Shown here piece after piece: positions 1 to 10,189 of a stretch of 64,000 nt of DNA. Where the stretch lies: contig JAPETS010000048.1 in assembly GCA_026023565.1 (NCBI GenBank), positions 1 through 64,000 on the forward strand, written 5' to 3'. Positions within the stretch are counted from its first letter, which is position 1, and each line of letters opens with the position of its first letter. The notes under the pieces were generated by a model. The model was not told where the DNA came from. It was given only the letters and a program-made list of their open reading frames with translations, and did not search any database. This DNA comes from Cirrosporium novae-zelandiae (Eukaryota). Both the position numbers and the translations under genes were made by a program.

Positions 1-123
1 TAACCCTAACCCTAACCCTAACCCTAACCCTAACCCTAACCCTAACCCTAACCCTAACCCTAACCCTAACCCTAACCCTAACCCTAACCCTAACCCTAAC
101 CCTAACCCTAACCCTAACCCTAA
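1..123. repeat. Telomeric repeat (TAACCC)n / (TTAGGG)n, chromosome end
   Basis: 20 perfect TAACCC units from base 1 plus a partial TAA, C-rich strand at the 5' end as expected for a left chromosome end. Confidence 0.99.
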
Positions 124-847: not shown

Positions 848-1941
848 CTATAATATTTTAATTTGTTTATTTTTTTTTTTAATATTTAGTTGACAATTCT
901 TTAATCGCTTTCGTTTCAAGTTTAAAGATCCTGAGTCTTTGATAGCATCGTAGAAAACGGCTGTCATAGCCCGTCCAATCCTGGACGGTTCATTAGTTGG
1001 CAACGTCCTTTTTTCAATATGCAGACTAGCATCGTAGAATTCATAAGGTTCGTCAAACTTCTGCAAATAAGCATATGGGATATCGGCTATGTATTGAACA
1101 AGCTTCGTCACTATTTGCTTCGACGCACGCCGGCCTTGCCTGGTTTTTAGGGCAGTAGTATTCGATTCGTGCTCGGGAACAAAAAGGCTGACCTGTTTGA
1201 CATAAGTTAGCTTAGGCTAGGAAGATCTATCGTTTAACGAACGTATCCACGTACTTTCACCGACTTTGATCCTTGCGGCCCATCTCTCCTTCTTGCCTGG
1301 CCCAGCGCGATTAAAATGGCGATGTATAAGGGGTCAATGACCAGTTCTTGCTTGCTTCGGATCGCCTTTGTAGCAAAAGACCATGATTTCTTGCCGGCAT
1401 TGTACTGTTCCCGTCGAGCGGTAGATGTCCACTTATGATCGACATAAGCCCAGATAGGGGTCATCCATTTCTCTTTATCTGAGGTTCGATGCCATGCAAC
1501 AAGGGGCAGAGGCAGTCGTGCGACAGAGTGGTGATTATATTCGAGAGCCAAGGTACTCTCAAACACGGCCTGTTGATGCAGTCGCATCGCGTTGGCAGTA
1601 CTTTTGACGAGTTGTCGCGTCTGCTGATCCTTTGATATCGCACGGGCATGTTCCAATTCCCATACCGCTCCTAGCAATTGTGTCCATTCTTCATCCTGGG
1701 ATACGACGTCATCCACTATGCATTCCTCGACATTGGTAGATGGAGCAAGATCGATATTGAGAGCCTTAAGATGATCGGCAGTCCATTCAAGCGGATGGAT
1801 ATACAAGCGAGTCCTACAGTTCTTGAGGAGGATGCCGCGGAGAGAACCAGGCGCTGGAGGTGGATGAGCACAGAACGGAATGATGCGATTATGATGATGA
1901 GTTGATCCTATTCTCGATGGCACAGGCGAGGCCGTGCTCAT
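848..1941 (-). CDS. Uncharacterised protein, 2 exons (1941-1255, 1192-848); possible inactive paralogue of the neighbouring nuclease-like gene
   Basis: First in-frame ATG at 1941; intron 1254-1193 (GTACGT...GCTAAC...CAG) joins ORF 1234-2004 in frame to ORF 848-1111; motifs LYIHPLEWTADHLKAL, DPLYIAILIALGQ, ADIPYAYLQKFDEP. Confidence 0.8.
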
Positions 1942-2448
1942 AGTAAACGTAGAAGTTGAAGATATGGGCGGAAAGCAGCATTGAAAGAGTGAGGTGAGTG
2001 ACAACGTTGATGTGGTGCTGTAGCGTCAATAAGTCAACAATGTTGCGCGCTGGTTGGTGTTCTCGTGTTTCTCCTCGGCACAACCCAACGGAGTAACAAG
2101 TCTCCGATGAATATATCGATAGGCCGAGGGTAGTAAACAACGTAATAAATAATACACGTACCGATACGCCTACCTCCTCAACCCCACTAATTAATTAACT
2201 ACCCCACTACTATCAACTGCCTGAAAAAACATCACAAAAATACCTCTCCCAATTTTTTGAAGAGCCACACTTCAACGTATCCCCGCAAGTCCGTCATAAC
2301 GGTCAAAATTGCGCTCTTTGGCCATTGTCAGCCCTCATGGGTAGTCGATCAATCAAACCAAAACTACTTGCCACGAGATCTACTATCTTTGTCGAGTTGC
2401 TCTATAACATCGTGCTCTTTTGATTTTCCATCTCCCTTTTTTGACCCC

Positions 2449-3675
2449 ATGGCACAAAAGTGGCCTTCCACTGAACGCGAATTCCTTCGTAGGTTTGCTA
2501 GCCATGAGACGGAGAACATTCATAATTTACCCCCCGAGCTGAAGTCTGCAAGTGGAAGTTCCTGGTCTGCCAAACATCTCCAAGCATGTCGTGTTCTTGT
2601 GCAAGATCATGGCGCTTGTCCTCCGATCCTCAATAAATTCATGGCCACGGCCAGAGAGCAAGTCGCCGCAGACCCATCTCTGCTTACATCTCTCGCAGCA
2701 TTCTCCCGAGATGAACTCCGACGGTTATCTCATCGCGAACTACGTAGGCCAAACACGTTTCCACATTTTGGATCATTCTTTGTTTCTCTTGCCGATGTTG
2801 CTCGTGTACCAAGCCCGGTTCCCCCTTCTCATCGGCGCCTCCGAGATAACCCTAAGCCCCTGGTGCGTCCTAACTTTGTATCTGGTGAAGGTTTCTCTTC
2901 CTCCCCAACTGTTAGCTCATCTCCTTTGACTGCTGTCTCCTCTGCATACTCGCCACGCCATCATGACGAGCAACCGGATTTCGAGGATCAGACTGAGCGC
3001 AAGAAGCATGAAGTTGTTTCCGCAAATATGGCTGCACAGTTCATCTCCATAGTTCTTGATATTTTCTCGAGTCAGCCAACGGATAGGATTACGAACGAAT
3101 TTTCTAATGCTCCAACCACGTTTCACTTGTACTCTCCTCAGCTCAGCTGCACCTGTCAAGATGATGGCTCTATTTGGCGCAGAGAGTATAATCCTATCAC
3201 CAGAACCTGGATAAATTCTCAAAGTAAACTTCTTTGCAGCCTCGAAGCCAAGTCGTCTTATTTTCAAGCTGATAGCTCGGGAATAGGCGCAACCTCCGAC
3301 CGAGCTGTCGCTCAGCAACTTTGCGAACTACTTGGGTCTGTGTTGTCAGAGGTTATAGATGGAGACTATGGAGCACTCGAAGATGAAGAGCGTTGGTCAG
3401 ATCTCAATATTCTTATATGTATCTTTATTAAAGTTATATGGGTATAGTAACTAACTTGCCTCAGCCGTTTTTTAATTTCAGTACACCAATCAGATATGGT
3501 AATTGTACATTGCGACTTTTCTGAGGAGTATCTTAGTTATATATACTCAGAGCAACCACCAGCCCACCTACCTTATCTCACGCTCCACCGATCACGCAAA
3601 TATGATCTCTGCGATCCAACTGAAAGACGAAAAGCTGCTGAGATTATTATCGCTTTAATTGAATACTTCAACTAA
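2449..3675 (+). CDS. Uncharacterised protein with a putative PD-(D/E)xK restriction-endonuclease-like domain, 2 exons (2449-3395, 3465-3675)
   Basis: ATG 2449; intron 3396-3464 (GTCAGA...CTAAC...CAG) restores the frame to ...RFLISVHQ...IIALIEYFN*; motif QDDG-x~24-LEAK-x~19-AQQLCE. Confidence 0.8.
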
Positions 3676-4095: not shown

Positions 4096-4347
4096 GACCC
4101 CCCCCCTAATAAAAGCAATTTGGTTTAGTTTCTTTTTCGGAAGGTTATAAGGGTCAGCAAGAGTCTAAAAATTGAAGAGATATCGGATTATTAATCGAGT
4201 TATCTAATTATAGAGTTACCTATCCACCCGTCTATAAATCAACCCTAAATAACCCTAAATATTTAATCAACTATATATTCAATTAGGGGATTTTTTATTC
4301 AATCAATCAATCAATTATTTATATTTTTATTTTATAAATTGGGGGTC
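4096..4347. mobile_element. Possible degenerate MITE-like or RIP-mutated relic
   Basis: About 250 bp of AT-rich sequence bounded by imperfect inverted ends GACCCCC...TAATAAAA and TTTTATAAATTGGGGGTC. Confidence 0.25.
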
Positions 4348-4799: not shown

Positions 4800-7700
4800 C
4801 TAATCCTCATACCATGCCTTAACTTCTGCCTTTGAAATCCAACACTCCCAGCCCTGGGCGTTAGTTCTAGGAATTACGCATACCTTATCTCCAGGTCTTA
4901 GCGAGGCCATAAAAGATTGGGCCTCGCGCGGCCCTAGAAAACGGGACCATCCAGTCGTAGACGGCGTGTTGGGCTGGCATCTATAGGACGCTGTCAGCCT
5001 ATGCTCATGAGATGATACAAGAAATCAAAGTCTTTTATCGTGTGGGAGACAATTGACAATCTGCTGGGTCGTGATGAAACGATTTAGCCGTACCCTTTCT
5101 CAACATCCCATATAACATGATACGTAGTCCAGTTTCCAACATTGAGTTTGTTGCGTGTTACTTCAACCCGTGTGGTGATTTTGCCATCTTTGAATTAGAG
5201 TCAGTATGTATCTTGTGAAATAGGTTAACAGCGAACCTCGCTTGAGGCCGATATCAAACCACGTATCGGAGCCGTGATATGTCCCCTGGTCGTATGGATG
5301 ATCATTGGCCCACATGGACCAGTCTTGGTCTTTTCCTGAGATAGAGATATGAATTTTAGAAAGTGGTACTATCAGAGCCACAGTCAGTTGTGTTCAAGCA
5401 AGGAGAATGAGGCGTTATGGCAGAAAAGAACACCTGCCGAGACCAGAAAGTAATCAATCTCTTACTCTTCGCATCATTCGGAATTGCGTTCGACTCGAGA
5501 TATACGCCTTCATCACGGCCTAAAAAGCCCTCAGTGGCGCGCAACCGTCTCTCTGTTTTTTTATCGCCAACCACGACAGCAATGCCGCTCTTGACCGCAT
5601 ACAGACATTCAACCTCGTGCACTGGGCGGTTTAATGCTGGCATCAAGCCTTTCTCTTGCCAGAGCTTCCGAACGGGGTTCCGAGCGGATGCGATATTTAA
5701 CACGTTCTGGATATCCTGGGTTGGTAGCAGCAATGCCGGACTGCGAGTCCATATGGCCCCAGTGATATCCGTGTTGCACAACTTGACGCACCACTGAAGA
5801 GTCGTGCTCCCCACCTCCCCAGGCGAGCTAATGTCGGCACCTTGATCTATCAAGTACTTGACAACCTGGCTATGTCCTAGTGCCACAGCCTCTATGAGAA
5901 GGGTCTGTCCCTGTGGACCTCGTGATTCTAAGTCACTTGTGCCGTATCTCTCGATCACTGCTTTGATAATGGCGCGGTGCCCAGATAAGACGGCTTGTCG
6001 AAGTAACGTGGTAGACTTATCTGCAACTAGAGCCTTCGGGTCTGGGAAGTATCGAAGTAGGCGAGAGAATGTTCTGGCGTAGTTATGCCGTTGCAACACG
6101 CATCGTAGCTTCTGAGCATCATTAATTGGGATTTCCTTACCCATCACGGGGATGAGCAACTCGATGCACTGGAGTTTACGAAGAGAAATATTCTTCGCAG
6201 CCGTCATGATGGCAGTGCAGCCTTCGTCGTCCGTAGTGAAGATTAGTTCCCTACGTCTACTCAGATATCGAAGGATAGCCGCAACATGATGCGGACGGCC
6301 GGCCCCACTGGCACTATGGAGAACAGTACGACCTTTGTTGTCCTTAATGGAGAGGTCTGATCTGGGAAGGAGAAGCTCCAAGCATTCCGTTCTTTCGATA
6401 TTCATGTGGCCCTCATGGTGAGCAGCAGCATGAGCGGCTGTACTCCCGTCCTTCTGACGCGCTCTAGGATTTGCTCCCGCATCGAGAAGATACTTTATAG
6501 AATTGGAGGCGTTCTTCCATGATGCCCATGCGGCCCTGGTCAGAGGTGTGTCTCTCATTTTGGTGGACGGCAGCTCCAGCAGCTGCTCGCCACCAGGAAA
6601 GTGAAGCAAAGCGTCAATAATGTCTGCGTTGTCACTTTCTGCCGCTCGATGAAGAACACTGTGACCCAGAGGTCCTCCCCGAGTAAGAATCAGGTCTGAA
6701 CGATTGCTCATCGTCTCCATGACTTTGAGCAACCTGCAGACAATTTCGATATTGCCTGCGTTATGGATGTGACCGCAAGCGTTTGCGAGGGGCAGCAGAC
6801 CTCGGGCGTCTTTCTGCACAACCATCCTTTCTGAGACTTCTTCCGAGGCAACTTCCAATAAGGTATCGACAACTTCGACATGGCCGAGCATTACAGCCGA
6901 TTGAAGTGCAGTGACTCCCTCAGGCCCATTCTTACGGGTCGGATCAGCGCCGCGTTTCATCAAAATACGAACTATTTCATGGTTTCCAAGGATAGAAGCA
7001 AGGTACAGAGCTGAGTAACCGTCACGACTATCTGAGGTAGATATAAAGCCTTCAGGATTCTCTCCGGAGCTGAGCCACTTCTTTGCCGTTTGCGGGAGGT
7101 TGAAAAAGGCCAGAATGTGTATGACGGAGATTGGCGGCTTCTTCGTTCGAAGCGTATTCCACATTTCGTCCTGCCAAACTCCTAATTCTCTCAGCTTGGG
7201 TTGTATGGCAACCGTTACGGTATCGAGAAATCTATCTTCTCCGAGCAGGTCCATGATGTCCAGATTTGGAAAAGGGCTGGTTGGGAGTAATTCGTGTGCC
7301 TTGGCCATGTGCCATCCCCAATTTTTAGCCGCATAGCCGAGTAATGGGGACTCCTCCACTGCGTTCTCCCATTCCTCTCGATTCCGTGAATCTTTCCGGG
7401 ACATTGAAAGACATCCCAGACAGGTCCTGGCTATGATAGAGTGGGCATCTTCGAAGTATATTGCTCCTTTTTCAGCCTCAACACAGAAATCTTTGATAGC
7501 TTTGTGTATAGATACCGTATCTGAGTCCCGTTCAATAGATAGAAAGTAGCAGGTCGCCTCTGCCAGCTTTTGCTCGTCAAAGTCCCTGGCCGCTTTTGAC
7601 TTATCGCCGTAGAATTTGAATGCGAGTGCATGCTGAAGTTCTAGGAATTTGATAGATGACCCCCGAGCGTATACAGCCCATAGAATGGCCTGTTTTCCAA

Positions 7701-9471
7701 CTTGTGCCTTGTATTTCTCAGGTTGTAGCTCAACCCGGTCAATGGCCTGCTTGACCAGTTCATCTACTGTGCCAGACAGGTTTTCCAAAGCTTGATCCAA
7801 CGATTCTGGGGTTTGCTCTCCTTTCAGCTGCTTGATTTGCAATTCAGCACACAGAAAGTTCCCACTAGCAAGCCTAACTATCTTATCGGTAATCTTTTTT
7901 CGGTTGTTCTCGGTCATGATTCTTTCCGGCAGTGCGGATGGTCCAATATATTCGTTCGAATCGTCCCCATCGGCGATATTTTTGAGCTTCCTATTCACGA
8001 AGGTCCGTATTGTTGACTCGTTGTTGTTAGCGTTCAGTATGTACGCGAGTCTTCGCTTGGCATGGGCTCTCATGCCTTCTCGAGAAGTGACTAAGAACTT
8101 TAGGGTCGGGGAACGCAGAGTGATTAACTTCTGGACGAGGTCCCCGAAGTTTGAGGTTGGCAATTCATCGAGCGCATCGATAACGAGATAGACTTGGTCA
8201 AAACTTCGGGAGACTTTGTCCAGAACCGAGTGAACAGCTTTCATTTCACGATGAACCCCCTGGTAGCTAACAAGATCATGAATAGACTGTACCTGATCGT
8301 AAGCACGACGTGGAGCAGCTTCCCATAGCTGAGTCATGAGCTGGTGTAGAAGTGCTCGGAATATGTGATCCGTTATCTGGGGTTCCCTAGCAGCGAAACT
8401 ACAGTAATAGATGGCTGTGGCTATGATCGGTGTAGCTCTAGAAGCTGGCGGAGCGCTCCTCTCTTTGGTCAAGTCTTGAGACTCGTCTGAGGTCACCTCA
8501 TCGTTGGATAGAGGCCTATCAAATAGGTCCAAATCCTGAAGCCGTCGTGCTAAATAGGTGGCGATGTATGTTTTCCCGGTACCGGCATCGCCGAGTACCC
8601 AAAGCCAATCGTTGGGTGTATTCCGGGTACTCTCAACCCACTCTCTAAATGCACTCTCGTTTAGTACCCAGCTAGGTAGACTCTGCTGTGCATGTTCGAG
8701 GATGCTCATTGGGGACTTTTCAAGGTCCGTCGGAAGCAGGTTAATAGTATCCAAGAAGCGAGACACATCCATGCTATTTTGGACTTTTCGAAGGGTATCT
8801 TGCACATGCTTTTGAGCCAGTTTAGTCTCGTGGGAATCTGTAGCAACAAGGATTTGCAACATACTGCGTCATCAGTCAGCGGCATATCTGAGACCTCCCT
8901 CCAGAACACTCACTTCTGGATTATCTTATCTTGTTCTTCGATCTCGTCGATTCGGCCCCGCACCCATGACTCATTAATAACCCACTTCACACCCTTCCAG
9001 CGTCGAATAATTGTGTTACGAACACCGCGCGCCTCTGTGTCAGCTTGGAGGTCATCCTTCAAATAATCCAGTACACGTTTATACATAGAGCAAGCACCTT
9101 CGATTGCCGAATCGATGTTCACGTTCAGCCATTCCTGCTCGTCTGCTTTGGACGGCAACTTATATAGTTGGCGCGCTTCTTCTAAGACTCCCTTTGAGGT
9201 TTCCAATCTATTTATCTTTATTCCTCAAAGTTAATTGTGAGTTCCAAAAGAGTGAGACTGGTTGCAGTCAATGGCTATGCAGCAAGTGAACGTGTTTGGT
9301 ACTCGTCCTATTGCAGTCCATTTGTCCACTTTCCAGCTGTAGGGAATGTATGGTCACGACAGCACATACCAATTTTCGCACTTCTTCATCAGCCTTCGCG
9401 GCTTTTTCTGCTTTCTCAAGTGCCCATTTAGCAGCTTCGATGGCTGTGATCGTGGTGCTAAAGATATCCAT
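4800..9471 (-). CDS. Fungal NLR-like protein: helical N-terminal domain, NACHT, ankyrin repeats and an extra C-terminal domain; multi-exon
   Basis: Walker A GDAGTGKT, Walker B YLVIDALDE, FLVTSRE, ASGNFLCAEL; many ankyrin repeats (GYSALYLAS, GVTALQSAV, GRTVLHSAS, GQTLLIEAV); 5' exons MDIFSTTITAIE... and ...IRRWKGVKWV; 3' exons ...SGKDQDWS...GTYHGSDTWFDI... and ...LRPGDKVCVIPRTNAQGWECWISKAEVKAWYED* (stop at 4800); some small exon borders unresolved. Confidence 0.9.
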
Positions 9472-10189
9472 GGCACTGCGTGCGGGTAACACATCACTGG
9501 AACGTTTCTTAGTAGTAACTGGTAGCGTCGTTCAGATGACAAAACTTTCATGATTGACATCACGTACATCCAACATCTTTTATAACAACAAGGTTATAGT
9601 TCCACAAACTACGTCACTTCGAGTTGCTAGCAAGTCATATCACAGGATAAATGAGGGGCATCTTTGTCCCTCGATACTCGAATCGACACCCGAAAAACGA
9701 AACAATCAGCTGTAAATTGTTTTCCTTATGCTTCCTGCACGCTACCCGAGTCCTCTTAACCCTCCTTGCCCTTCCCCCTTAGGCCCATTTATGTGTGACA
9801 ATAAGAGTACCTTTCCCTCTTAAAGCAAACAAAAAAAACATGCCGTTTTTAATTTAAGCTTAGCTATTCAAGTACCCCGCATGTCAATGAATTTTGTTGC
9901 AGGCCAACCTGACCTAGGCGGGTAAAATATAATATGGAGTTCGGAGGGAGTAACGAACGATCAAGTACCGATGTTTTTCAGCTAACTCCATTGGCTTGGT
10001 CTCAGTTGCGGCAAGATTAAGTACCGATACGTCGAGGATATGGTTCCCTATGGTTTACGCAATGCCCTTCAAAATTATTATGGTCGATGCATCAATTCGT
10101 TCTTGTCGTCACCTATCATTTCAGCTTGCTGCGGTGTATAGTACTAAGCTAATCCACGTGAAATGGGTATCAAAATTGAATGCAAGCTA

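Follow-up and report, generated by a model that had tools for sequence, protein, structure and literature searches.

The first 64,000 nucleotides of contig JAPETS010000048.1 of Cirrosporium novae-zelandiae, hereafter called the window, contain a divergent pair of genes beside the telomere, between positions 848 and 3675: the left gene lies on the minus strand and the right gene on the plus strand (all coordinates below are those of the window). We found that the right protein has the fold and the catalytic residues of a PD-(D/E)xK nuclease, that the two genes remain linked in other fungi, and that the right gene is repeatedly broken in one natural population in which the left gene stays open. 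We propose, with a probability of roughly 0.4, that the locus is a dispensable conflict cassette of the toxin–antidote type, composed of a nuclease and its controller. The nuclease may be toxic, the left protein may interact with it physically and be the controlling member of the pair, and the cassette may act in drive or killing.

The fold of the right protein was modelled on the full-length Sclerotinia nivalis homologue P0013, which is 48% identical to the window by tblastn, using a 150-sequence alignment (A5). In the model, with a predicted local distance difference test score (pLDDT) of 87.1 and a predicted template modelling score (pTM) of 0.82, a disordered linker (about residues 120–195) connects an N-terminal helical domain to a mixed alpha/beta domain, to which the part encoded by exon 2 contributes two strands (337–344 and 347–354), a helix (357–364), a strand (375–379) and a helix (388–406). 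The right protein has the alpha-beta-beta-beta-alpha-beta core of the restriction-endonuclease-like fold. When the model was compared with 48,161 PDB representatives by VIA-align, it matched the human mitoribosome chains 7a5f_s3 (13.7; 230) and 3j7y_5 (13.0; 225), followed by BpuSI (9.6; 155), DrdV (9.2; 142), SgrAI (7.4; 192), NucC (6.2–6.4; 166–167) and the HsdR fragments 3h1t and 2w00 (6.0–6.1; 124–139), where the brackets hold the two values returned for each match; more than 20 additional PD-(D/E)xK entries lie below the HsdR fragments. Foldseek agrees, with the mitoribosome chains at E 1.8e-4 to 8e-3 and then EcoRI, MGME1, Cas4 and CidB nuclease-like domains. We take the mitoribosome chains s3 and 5, for which the tool prints no protein names, to be mL65 and mL37, an identification supported by an mL37 match in the ESM Atlas (see below).

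The active site is conserved throughout the family. In A5, the catalytic columns retain D in 104/112, G in 104/112, E in 98/104, K in 94/102 and Q in 90/97 sequences, and the window gene carries the whole catalytic set (D239, E266, K268 and Q289), with the D...(D/E)-x-K residues on the second and third core strands. Since the fold match coincides with the conserved D, E, K and Q columns, the active site of this PD-(D/E)xK-fold protein is under family-wide constraint. The N-terminal domain has conserved columns of its own (S36 100/105, W38 100/105, H42 81/104, L43 89/105 and R47 87/103). The family comprises 17 relatives by a word-indexed search, and 242 representative clusters at E <=0.001 (103 at <=1e-10) by an exhaustive HMMER search with a seven-sequence profile. 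Pfam scans of the exon products of both genes and of full-length homologues gave sub-threshold chance matches only. The original prediction, made from the window's letters alone, had read the right gene as nuclease-like with an intact PD-(D/E)xK site, and the confident fold together with the family-wide catalytic set bears this out; the right protein is predicted to be an active-looking, metal-dependent PD-(D/E)xK nuclease. Among the ESM Atlas rows for this family are Mucoromycota and Zoopagomycota clusters, as well as a look-alike cluster of 405 residues with 143 members, almost all from molluscs (feature score 0.96).

How widely are the two genes linked? The locus tags of the two homologues are adjacent in Sclerotinia borealis (SBOR_8359, right; SBOR_8360, left) and in Stromatinia cepivora (EAF04_010813, right; EAF04_010812, left), and in S. 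trifoliorum both families lie on one contig of 2,543,724 bp. Scanning metagenome contigs with the right-family alignment yielded 12 loci (L001–L012). Four of these (L001, L009, L011 and L012) are too short upstream for a linkage test; among the eight with at least 1 kb of upstream sequence, tblastn places the left gene head-to-head with the right gene in seven (L002–L008), at a start-codon spacing of 157–206 bp (157 bp in L002, about 206 bp in L003). The eighth locus, L010, holds a right copy that is truncated at both its 5′ and 3′ ends and has an internal deletion, beside low-complexity repeats: it lies at 5238–5813 of its contig, begins near codon 54, stops before the ExK motif and abuts a long low-complexity repeat open reading frame. 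This truncated copy and the intact one of L001 come from one assembly series. Across the region of the pair, L002–L008 share more than 99% identity, and the right gene of L001 reads the same as that of L002; we count L001–L008 as one lineage.

A further lineage preserves the pair in another arrangement. The 645-residue protein P0042 of Cudoniella acicularis matches the left-family hidden Markov model (HMM) over residues 4–253 (E 9e-51) and the right-family profile over residues 258–640 (E 9.2e-95); its left part is cut after YLQK and is followed by a complete right part. P0042 may be a genuine fusion, or else two tandem genes that the annotation has merged. As both cases require a single strand with the left gene upstream, the adjacency has outlived a change of orientation at 28–37% identity. 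The prediction that the pair is a unit would have failed if its homologues were unlinked elsewhere; instead, linkage was found in at least four other lineages, or five if every case above is counted, and the pair thus shows the tight, conserved linkage that characterizes two-gene toxin–antidote elements in general. The head-to-head arrangement itself holds for the metagenome species, whereas Cudoniella has a same-strand order, so that two orientations exist. Over six lineages, pairwise identities are 28–70% for the left and 32–76% for the right protein, and the two sets are correlated (r = 0.94 across 15 pairs); both proteins thus evolve fast and in step, which agrees with co-inheritance. In the window, tblastn finds no copies other than the pair itself. 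Neither Sclerotinia sclerotiorum nor Botrytis is among the named matches, which is a weak negative, the search being word-limited.

The two genes decay unequally. Intact right genes occur in L001 and L002 alone, and 6 of the 8 near-identical full-length metagenome copies carry frame-breaking lesions. These are a 1-nt deletion near codon 27 (L003); a 4-nt insertion near codon 66 (L004); a CAG-to-TAG nonsense change at codon 210 together with a 40-nt insertion near codon 298 (L005); and a 67/68-nt deletion that takes out the ExK strand (L006–L008). L007 has a second lesion, a 1-nt insertion near codon 18, and so probably does L008, which stands outside that alignment. Both exons of the left gene are open in each of the seven loci where it is present, the one deletion being of 3 nt and in frame, and its exon 2 is identical in all loci where it is complete. 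In a five-locus alignment, 5 of the 8 small indels of the approximately 7-kb collinear part fall in the 1.2-kb right gene, and the left gene has one, the in-frame 3-nt indel. A similar case is suggested by Stromatinia: after ...CQDDGAAWRR, its right product P0020 switches to the +1-frame reading of the same segment and ends before ExK, and the left neighbour P0035 is full length beside this shortened protein. The shift was inferred by comparing the P0020 protein with frame 1 of L001, and may reflect an error in the gene model. Loss of the putative toxin with retention of the putative antidote is therefore seen in one species, and may also have occurred in Stromatinia. The recurrent frame-breaking of the nuclease gene beside an open partner, within one natural population, is a new pointer toward the conflict interpretation.

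Next, we consider the protein that is kept. The left family has 11 relatives by a word-indexed search with a single sequence and 20 by a word-indexed search with the family profile, and no Pfam domain was found in any of them. In the PIWAYxD segment, W164, A165, Y166 and D168 are invariant, and the family has no ExK; the lysine after D168 (DHK in the window) is not conserved, the other members reading DHM, DRM, DRT, DQD, DQT, DEA or DET. This agrees with the earlier statement that only the right gene keeps D..ExK, the left protein having PIWAYVD at the proposed equivalent place. A basic KRK...KRRKV tail occurs in P0030, P0034, P0035 and P0036, which are four of the seven left homologues from the database whose sequence covers exon 2, as well as in the L003–L008 copies; it is more degenerate in P0038 and in the window protein. 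From its pattern, we take this tail to resemble a bipartite nuclear-localisation signal. The left protein would be a non-catalytic, probably nuclear partner.

The structure of the left protein is less telling. Its AlphaFold2 model, built from 17 sequences, has a pLDDT of 53.6, and residues 200–317 are mostly confident (ten-residue blocks at about 50–90), forming a helix, two strands, a short helix, a strand and a long helix; the exon 2 portion falls in the same range of about 50–90. A VIA-wide comparison and Foldseek gave no informative or nuclease-fold match for this model, and Foldseek against the PDB returned nothing at E <=0.001. Profile searches of the PDB by sequence with A1, A2, A4 and A5 gave 0, 0, 0 and 3 matches, none of them related. 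The ESM Atlas holds its own model of the protein (pTM 0.72), and its feature search returned three ascomycete clusters with scores of 0.95–0.97 and, at rank 11, an mL37-family cluster with a score of 0.79, which we treat as a lead only. A look-alike of the left family in the same atlas is a 426-residue cluster of 71 members, almost all from molluscs (structure template modelling (TM) score 0.54).

Are the two proteins paralogues? The original prediction described collinear motifs along both proteins and regarded the left gene as a dead copy of the right one. The comparisons do not lift the collinear motifs above chance: BLASTP shows nothing collinear, and whole-profile hhalign aligns only the W[ST]AxHLxA module. 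BLASTP between the exon-1 products gave E >=0.25, and between the exon-2 products one match (E 0.006) in segments other than those originally paired. Whole-family hhalign gave probabilities of 0.6% (17 versus 11 sequences) and 2% (150 versus 17), with only the N-terminal module aligned in both runs, and the sub-profiles of the C-terminal halves reached 0.1%. The N-terminal sub-profiles aligned at E 3.9e-4 with a probability of 35%; the right-family HMM matched 50–60 N-terminal residues of four left proteins at E 0.003–0.015 in a database of 20 sequences; and the same left-family N-terminal columns formed the top alignment for 8 of the 14 right-family subgroups, nothing past this module being aligned by hhalign in any of the 14. 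The match of the P0042 subgroup is trivial, because P0042 itself contains the left part. The profile homology of the two families is thus confined to about 17–60 N-terminal residues. In addition, the order of secondary structures after the central helix is equal in both models (helix, strand, strand, short YL helix, strand, helix).

The pairing of WTADHLKAL with WSAKHLQAC therefore survives as the only segment aligned by the family profiles, with marginal statistics. The shared N-terminal W-x-A-x-H-L module is likely real, and common descent of the whole proteins has about even odds. The left protein indeed lacks the catalytic set; its description as a dead paralogue is plausible only, because just this short module is shared and the statistics are marginal. 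The two genes have no obvious DNA identity, as had been noted, and no direct or inverted repeat of at least 16 nt joins them. A recent inverted duplication as the origin of the pair is ruled out by the absence of DNA or collinear BLASTP similarity. The claim that the introns interrupt equivalent places holds in part: each falls about a codon or less from where the next strand begins, but not at exactly the same place, and the phases differ (0 versus 2).

On the basis of these observations, we propose the following mechanism for a conflict cassette. The two genes would be inherited together as one cassette and, as the original prediction had it, may be expressed from one promoter. The right protein would be a potentially harmful DNase, costly or harmful by itself, and the left partner would bind or control it by restraint, by neutralisation or by delivery to the nucleus, possibly through the N-terminal W-x-A-x-H-L module that both proteins have. 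The cassette would be dispensable, fast-evolving and able to relocate, and repeated loss of the nuclease gene with retention of the protective partner would generate partner-only alleles. The variable location of the pair, which is subtelomeric in the window and tens of kb from contig ends elsewhere, counts in favour of this reading. A more far-reaching version, which we consider clearly unlikely, is that the pair represents a so far undescribed eukaryotic two-gene toxin–antidote or drive family in which a DNase is checked by a linked, dead and extremely diverged copy of itself bearing a nuclear-localisation signal, and which moves between chromosome ends and internal sites, perhaps between fungal classes, leaving antidote-only alleles behind.

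Several observations weigh against a conflict cassette. The segregating codons of the left gene are 3 synonymous and 6 non-synonymous of 349, so that its point substitutions show no strong constraint (the right gene of the same population has 7 and 9, respectively, of 388), and two left alleles alter conserved positions, by an H-to-Y change in WTADHL and a one-residue deletion in AILLK. The asymmetry is based on about six lesions in one species and on one protein-model inference; the single-base indels could be assembly errors, which is an unlikely explanation of the larger right-gene lesions and the nonsense codon. Correlated identities are expected of any two vertically inherited neighbours, and a catalytic site conserved over 242 clusters equally fits an ordinary cellular nuclease. 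Furthermore, the combination of an active with an inactive subunit is common in housekeeping nucleases.

The main alternative is that the pair encodes a heterodimeric cellular nuclease, with the right protein as the catalytic and the left as the structural or targeting subunit, working in repair, recombination or genome defence without any selfishness. The left protein might then be a degenerate paralogue that supplies the nuclear-localisation signal, and the bidirectional promoter might balance subunit dosage. The module common to both proteins, the same order of secondary structures in their C-terminal halves, the basic tail found on the left protein only, and the family-wide conservation of the catalytic site all suit such a design, as does the mL37-family lead for the left protein. 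A precedent is offered by mL65 and mL37, which PMC8998825 describes as a pseudo-dimer of repurposed endonucleases. An obligate left partner, however, should be free to decay after the loss of the nuclease, yet the left gene is open in 7/7 loci and the right gene broken in 6/8. The very fast divergence of both proteins (42–50% between S. borealis and the other Sclerotiniaceae) also speaks against a heterodimer, as would, weakly and within the word-limited search, the missing S. sclerotiorum and Botrytis matches. A heterodimer explains the linkage and the shared module, and fits the asymmetric decay and the patchy, fast-evolving distribution less well; we regard it as somewhat unlikely.

The remaining two alternatives are less probable. 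That the genes are unrelated orphan neighbours in an ancestral block, sharing a motif by chance, with the broken copies reflecting the loss of a dispensable gene, would agree with the whole-length profile probabilities of at most 2%, with the uninformative left model, and with named carriers that all belong to one class except for the window's own label. This is very unlikely, given that the adjacency persists at 28–37% identity and through the orientation change of the Cudoniella model, that the left N-terminal module tops the alignments for 8/14 right subgroups, and that the right HMM matches four left proteins (E 0.003–0.015, 20-sequence database). An allorecognition cassette of the heterokaryon-incompatibility type, or an immune cassette associated with a NOD-like receptor (NLR), in which the nuclease kills and the partner or a NACHT–ankyrin neighbour senses non-self, is also very unlikely. 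Null alleles of death effectors are common at allorecognition loci, the next gene 1.7 kb downstream, in convergent orientation to the pair, is of the NACHT/NPHP3_N–ankyrin kind, and the related loci have a kinase fragment and a DUF7104–ankyrin gene upstream and haplotypes that diverge about 1.3 kb downstream. On the other side, identity between alleles of the pair exceeds 99% in the one population sampled, far from deep divergence, neither protein has a HET, HeLo or other recognised death domain by Pfam, and the NLR neighbour is not seen beside the pair in L003 or L004.

The structures of both genes are summarized in the table below. The left product has 343 residues and the right product 385. 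Exon 2 of the left gene encodes the strands VSLFV and KLVQYIADI, a YLQKF turn, the strand SLHIEKR, a C-terminal helix and a basic KRKRL...KKKNK tail. The right junction, ...EER-C-RFLISV..., agrees with the full-length homologues P0015 (...QRCRFLISV...) and P0013. As the junctions match the deposited model and the homologues, the coordinates and gene structures first drawn from the window are correct: these are two divergent two-exon genes with a 507-bp spacer, less than 1 kb from the telomere, the last telomere repeat being 725 bp from the left stop codon.

Table. Features of the gene pair and the adjoining chromosome end in the window.
Feature	Position	Strand	Basis or remark
Telomere repeats (TAACCC)n	1..123	.	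Direct reading; repeat family D1
Left gene exon 2, 114 codons and stop	848..1192	-	Conserved in P0030, P0034-P0036, P0038
Left gene intron, 62 nt, GTACGT...CAG, phase 0	1193..1254	-	Junction between K and VSLFV, as in deposited partial model P0022
Left gene exon 1, 229 codons	1255..1941	-	Homologues
Left PIWAYVD strand	1438..1458	-	W164, A165, Y166, D168 invariant in family
Left N-terminal module WTADHLKAL	1759..1785	-	Nearly invariant in left family
Divergent spacer between start codons, 507 bp	1942..2448	.	Gene coordinates
Right gene exon 1	2449..3395	+	N-terminal helical domain, disordered Ser/Pro linker, first part of nuclease core
Right N-terminal module WSAKHLQAC	2563..2589	+	Conserved columns in A5
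D238-D239-G240, first acidic residue of PD-(D/E)xK site	3160..3168	+	A5 columns D259, G260
E266-A-K268, ExK of PD-(D/E)xK site	3244..3252	+	A5 columns E287, K289; model strand 282-289
Q289, on helix past ExK strand	3313..3315	+	A5 column Q310
Right gene intron, 69 nt, GTCAGA...CTAAC...CAG, phase 2, CTAAC branch site	3396..3464	+	Comparison with P0013, P0015, P0017
Right gene exon 2 including stop	3465..3675	+	Strands RFLISVHQ, MVIVHCDF, YLSYIY turn, strand YLTLH, C-terminal helix
Relic telomere junction, AACCCTAAAT twice in tandem	4241..4260	+	Same orientation as live junction at 116-125

The chromosome end appears to have been extended. The junction decamer AACCCTAAAT has three matches in the 64 kb, at the live junction and in the tandem copy at 4241–4260, against 0.14 expected, and none of 100 shuffles reaches three. 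The relic junction is followed by AT-rich sequence at 4292–4335 that resembles 263–603, and is flanked by the repeats D4, D5 and D9. Because the decamer recurs at 4241–4260, we place the pair in a terminal segment of 4.1 kb that was added beyond a former chromosome end. Two tandem 71-nt units, 70% identical, occupy 214–355 in the AT-rich subtelomeric sequence that separates the telomere repeats from the left gene. The NLR-like gene downstream, with NACHT/NPHP3_N and ankyrin repeats, occupies 5356–9531 on the minus strand, and its short upstream exons (8910–9224 and 9268–9531) encode a helical N-terminal part; ordinary genes, including a homeobox gene and INCENP, lie beyond it. Telomere proximity as a trait of the family is ruled out, since in related contigs the pair is tens of kb away from both contig ends.

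In the related metagenome loci, the DUF7104–ankyrin gene upstream of the pair contains a 1217-bp indel. Downstream, the L003–L007 haplotypes diverge sharply (from about 8500 onward in L003), so that a forced alignment shows about 150–240 differences in every 500 bp; in this stretch L004 has a Tf2-type retroelement fragment and L003 a GH76 gene. As for the distribution among named fungi, the window genome is labelled Xylobotryomycetes, and every other named fungus with a member of either family belongs to the Leotiomycetes. The window pair is 44–59% (left) and 48–71% (right) identical to the Helotiales pairs; S. borealis is 47% (left) and 42–50% (right) identical to Stromatinia or S. trifoliorum, and the latter two are 70–76% identical to each other. 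The window pair thus resembles the Helotiales pairs more than the S. borealis pair resembles those of the two other Sclerotiniaceae, which could reflect horizontal movement, a loose label of the metagenome-assembled genome, or fast evolution.

How does the pair compare with known systems? The closest structural matches lead to mL37 and mL65 (MRPL37 and MRPS30; PF07147, PDCD9), of the animal mitoribosome, which PMC8998825 describes as rRNA-binding, repurposed endonucleases that form a pseudo-dimer. The right protein shares with them the architecture of an N-terminal helical part and an endonuclease-like domain, a structure match in the ESM Atlas bears the name 'Large ribosomal subunit protein mL37' (95% of its members carry PF07147) and has a TM score of 0.51, and the two-protein design is parallel. 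In contrast, P0003, P0004, P0013, P0015 and P0017 have no PF07147 match at E up to 10, no sequence-level match to the PDB chains was found, and the right family retains D, ExK and Q, whereas PMC8998825 calls the ribosomal proteins repurposed. The window pair is patchy and has null alleles, unlike mL37 and mL65, which are core ribosomal components of animals; these two features disfavour a core ribosomal role. BpuSI, DrdV, SgrAI, HsdR and NucC are 7–13% identical to the right protein, which is eukaryotic, has the N-terminal helical domain and the disordered linker, and lacks their methyltransferase, helicase or cyclic-nucleotide sensor domains.

Among conflict systems, the Wolbachia pairs CinA–CinB and CidA–CidB are two-gene systems of cytoplasmic incompatibility, with a PD-(D/E)xK or PD-(D/E)xK-like protein and a linked neutralising partner (PMC8787490). 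The ND1–ND2 domains of CidB are among the weak Foldseek rows of the right protein (E 0.14–0.37); the Wolbachia pairs differ in being bacterial operons that act on an animal host and in having a partner that is not a paralogue. Spok kills through a nuclease-type domain whose active-site lysine is essential, is toxic outside meiosis, and exists as antidote-only and pseudogenised copies at variable genomic locations, according to PMC12693581. In the Spok proteins of Podospora and Fusarium, one polypeptide carries both functions and a kinase domain confers resistance, whereas here the roles would be split over two genes; Pfam finds no kinase family match in either protein or in the full-length homologues, and the likeness of the nuclease domains is one of description. 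Two further leads, and leads only, are the ESM Atlas structure rows of the right protein for PDDEXK_12 (PF20516; TM 0.47) and for a Crinkler-associated cluster (Crinkler on 17% of members; TM 0.47–0.51), both below the naming bar of the tool; Pfam gives no PF20516 match for the right proteins at E up to 10. Within the one population, neither the deeply diverged alleles nor the death domain of fungal het and allorecognition loci was found.

The literature covered, with supplements outside its scope, makes no mention of PDDEXK_12/PF20516 or of the six homologue locus tags. By the sources cited above, two-gene nuclease/antidote systems and nuclease-based fungal killers are already known kinds, and both families described here are orphans.

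Few killer elements are known from fungi, among them Spok, wtf and the Neurospora Sk loci, and most consist of one gene. If the conflict reading is true, a split cassette with nuclease-null, partner-intact alleles would provide a simple system for studying the neutralisation of a nuclease toxin in eukaryotes, and two orphan families would gain names, the right one comprising 242 representative clusters without a Pfam model. If the pair is instead a heterodimer, it would be a catalytically intact fungal counterpart of mL37 and mL65, and would bear on the endonuclease origin of these ribosomal proteins.

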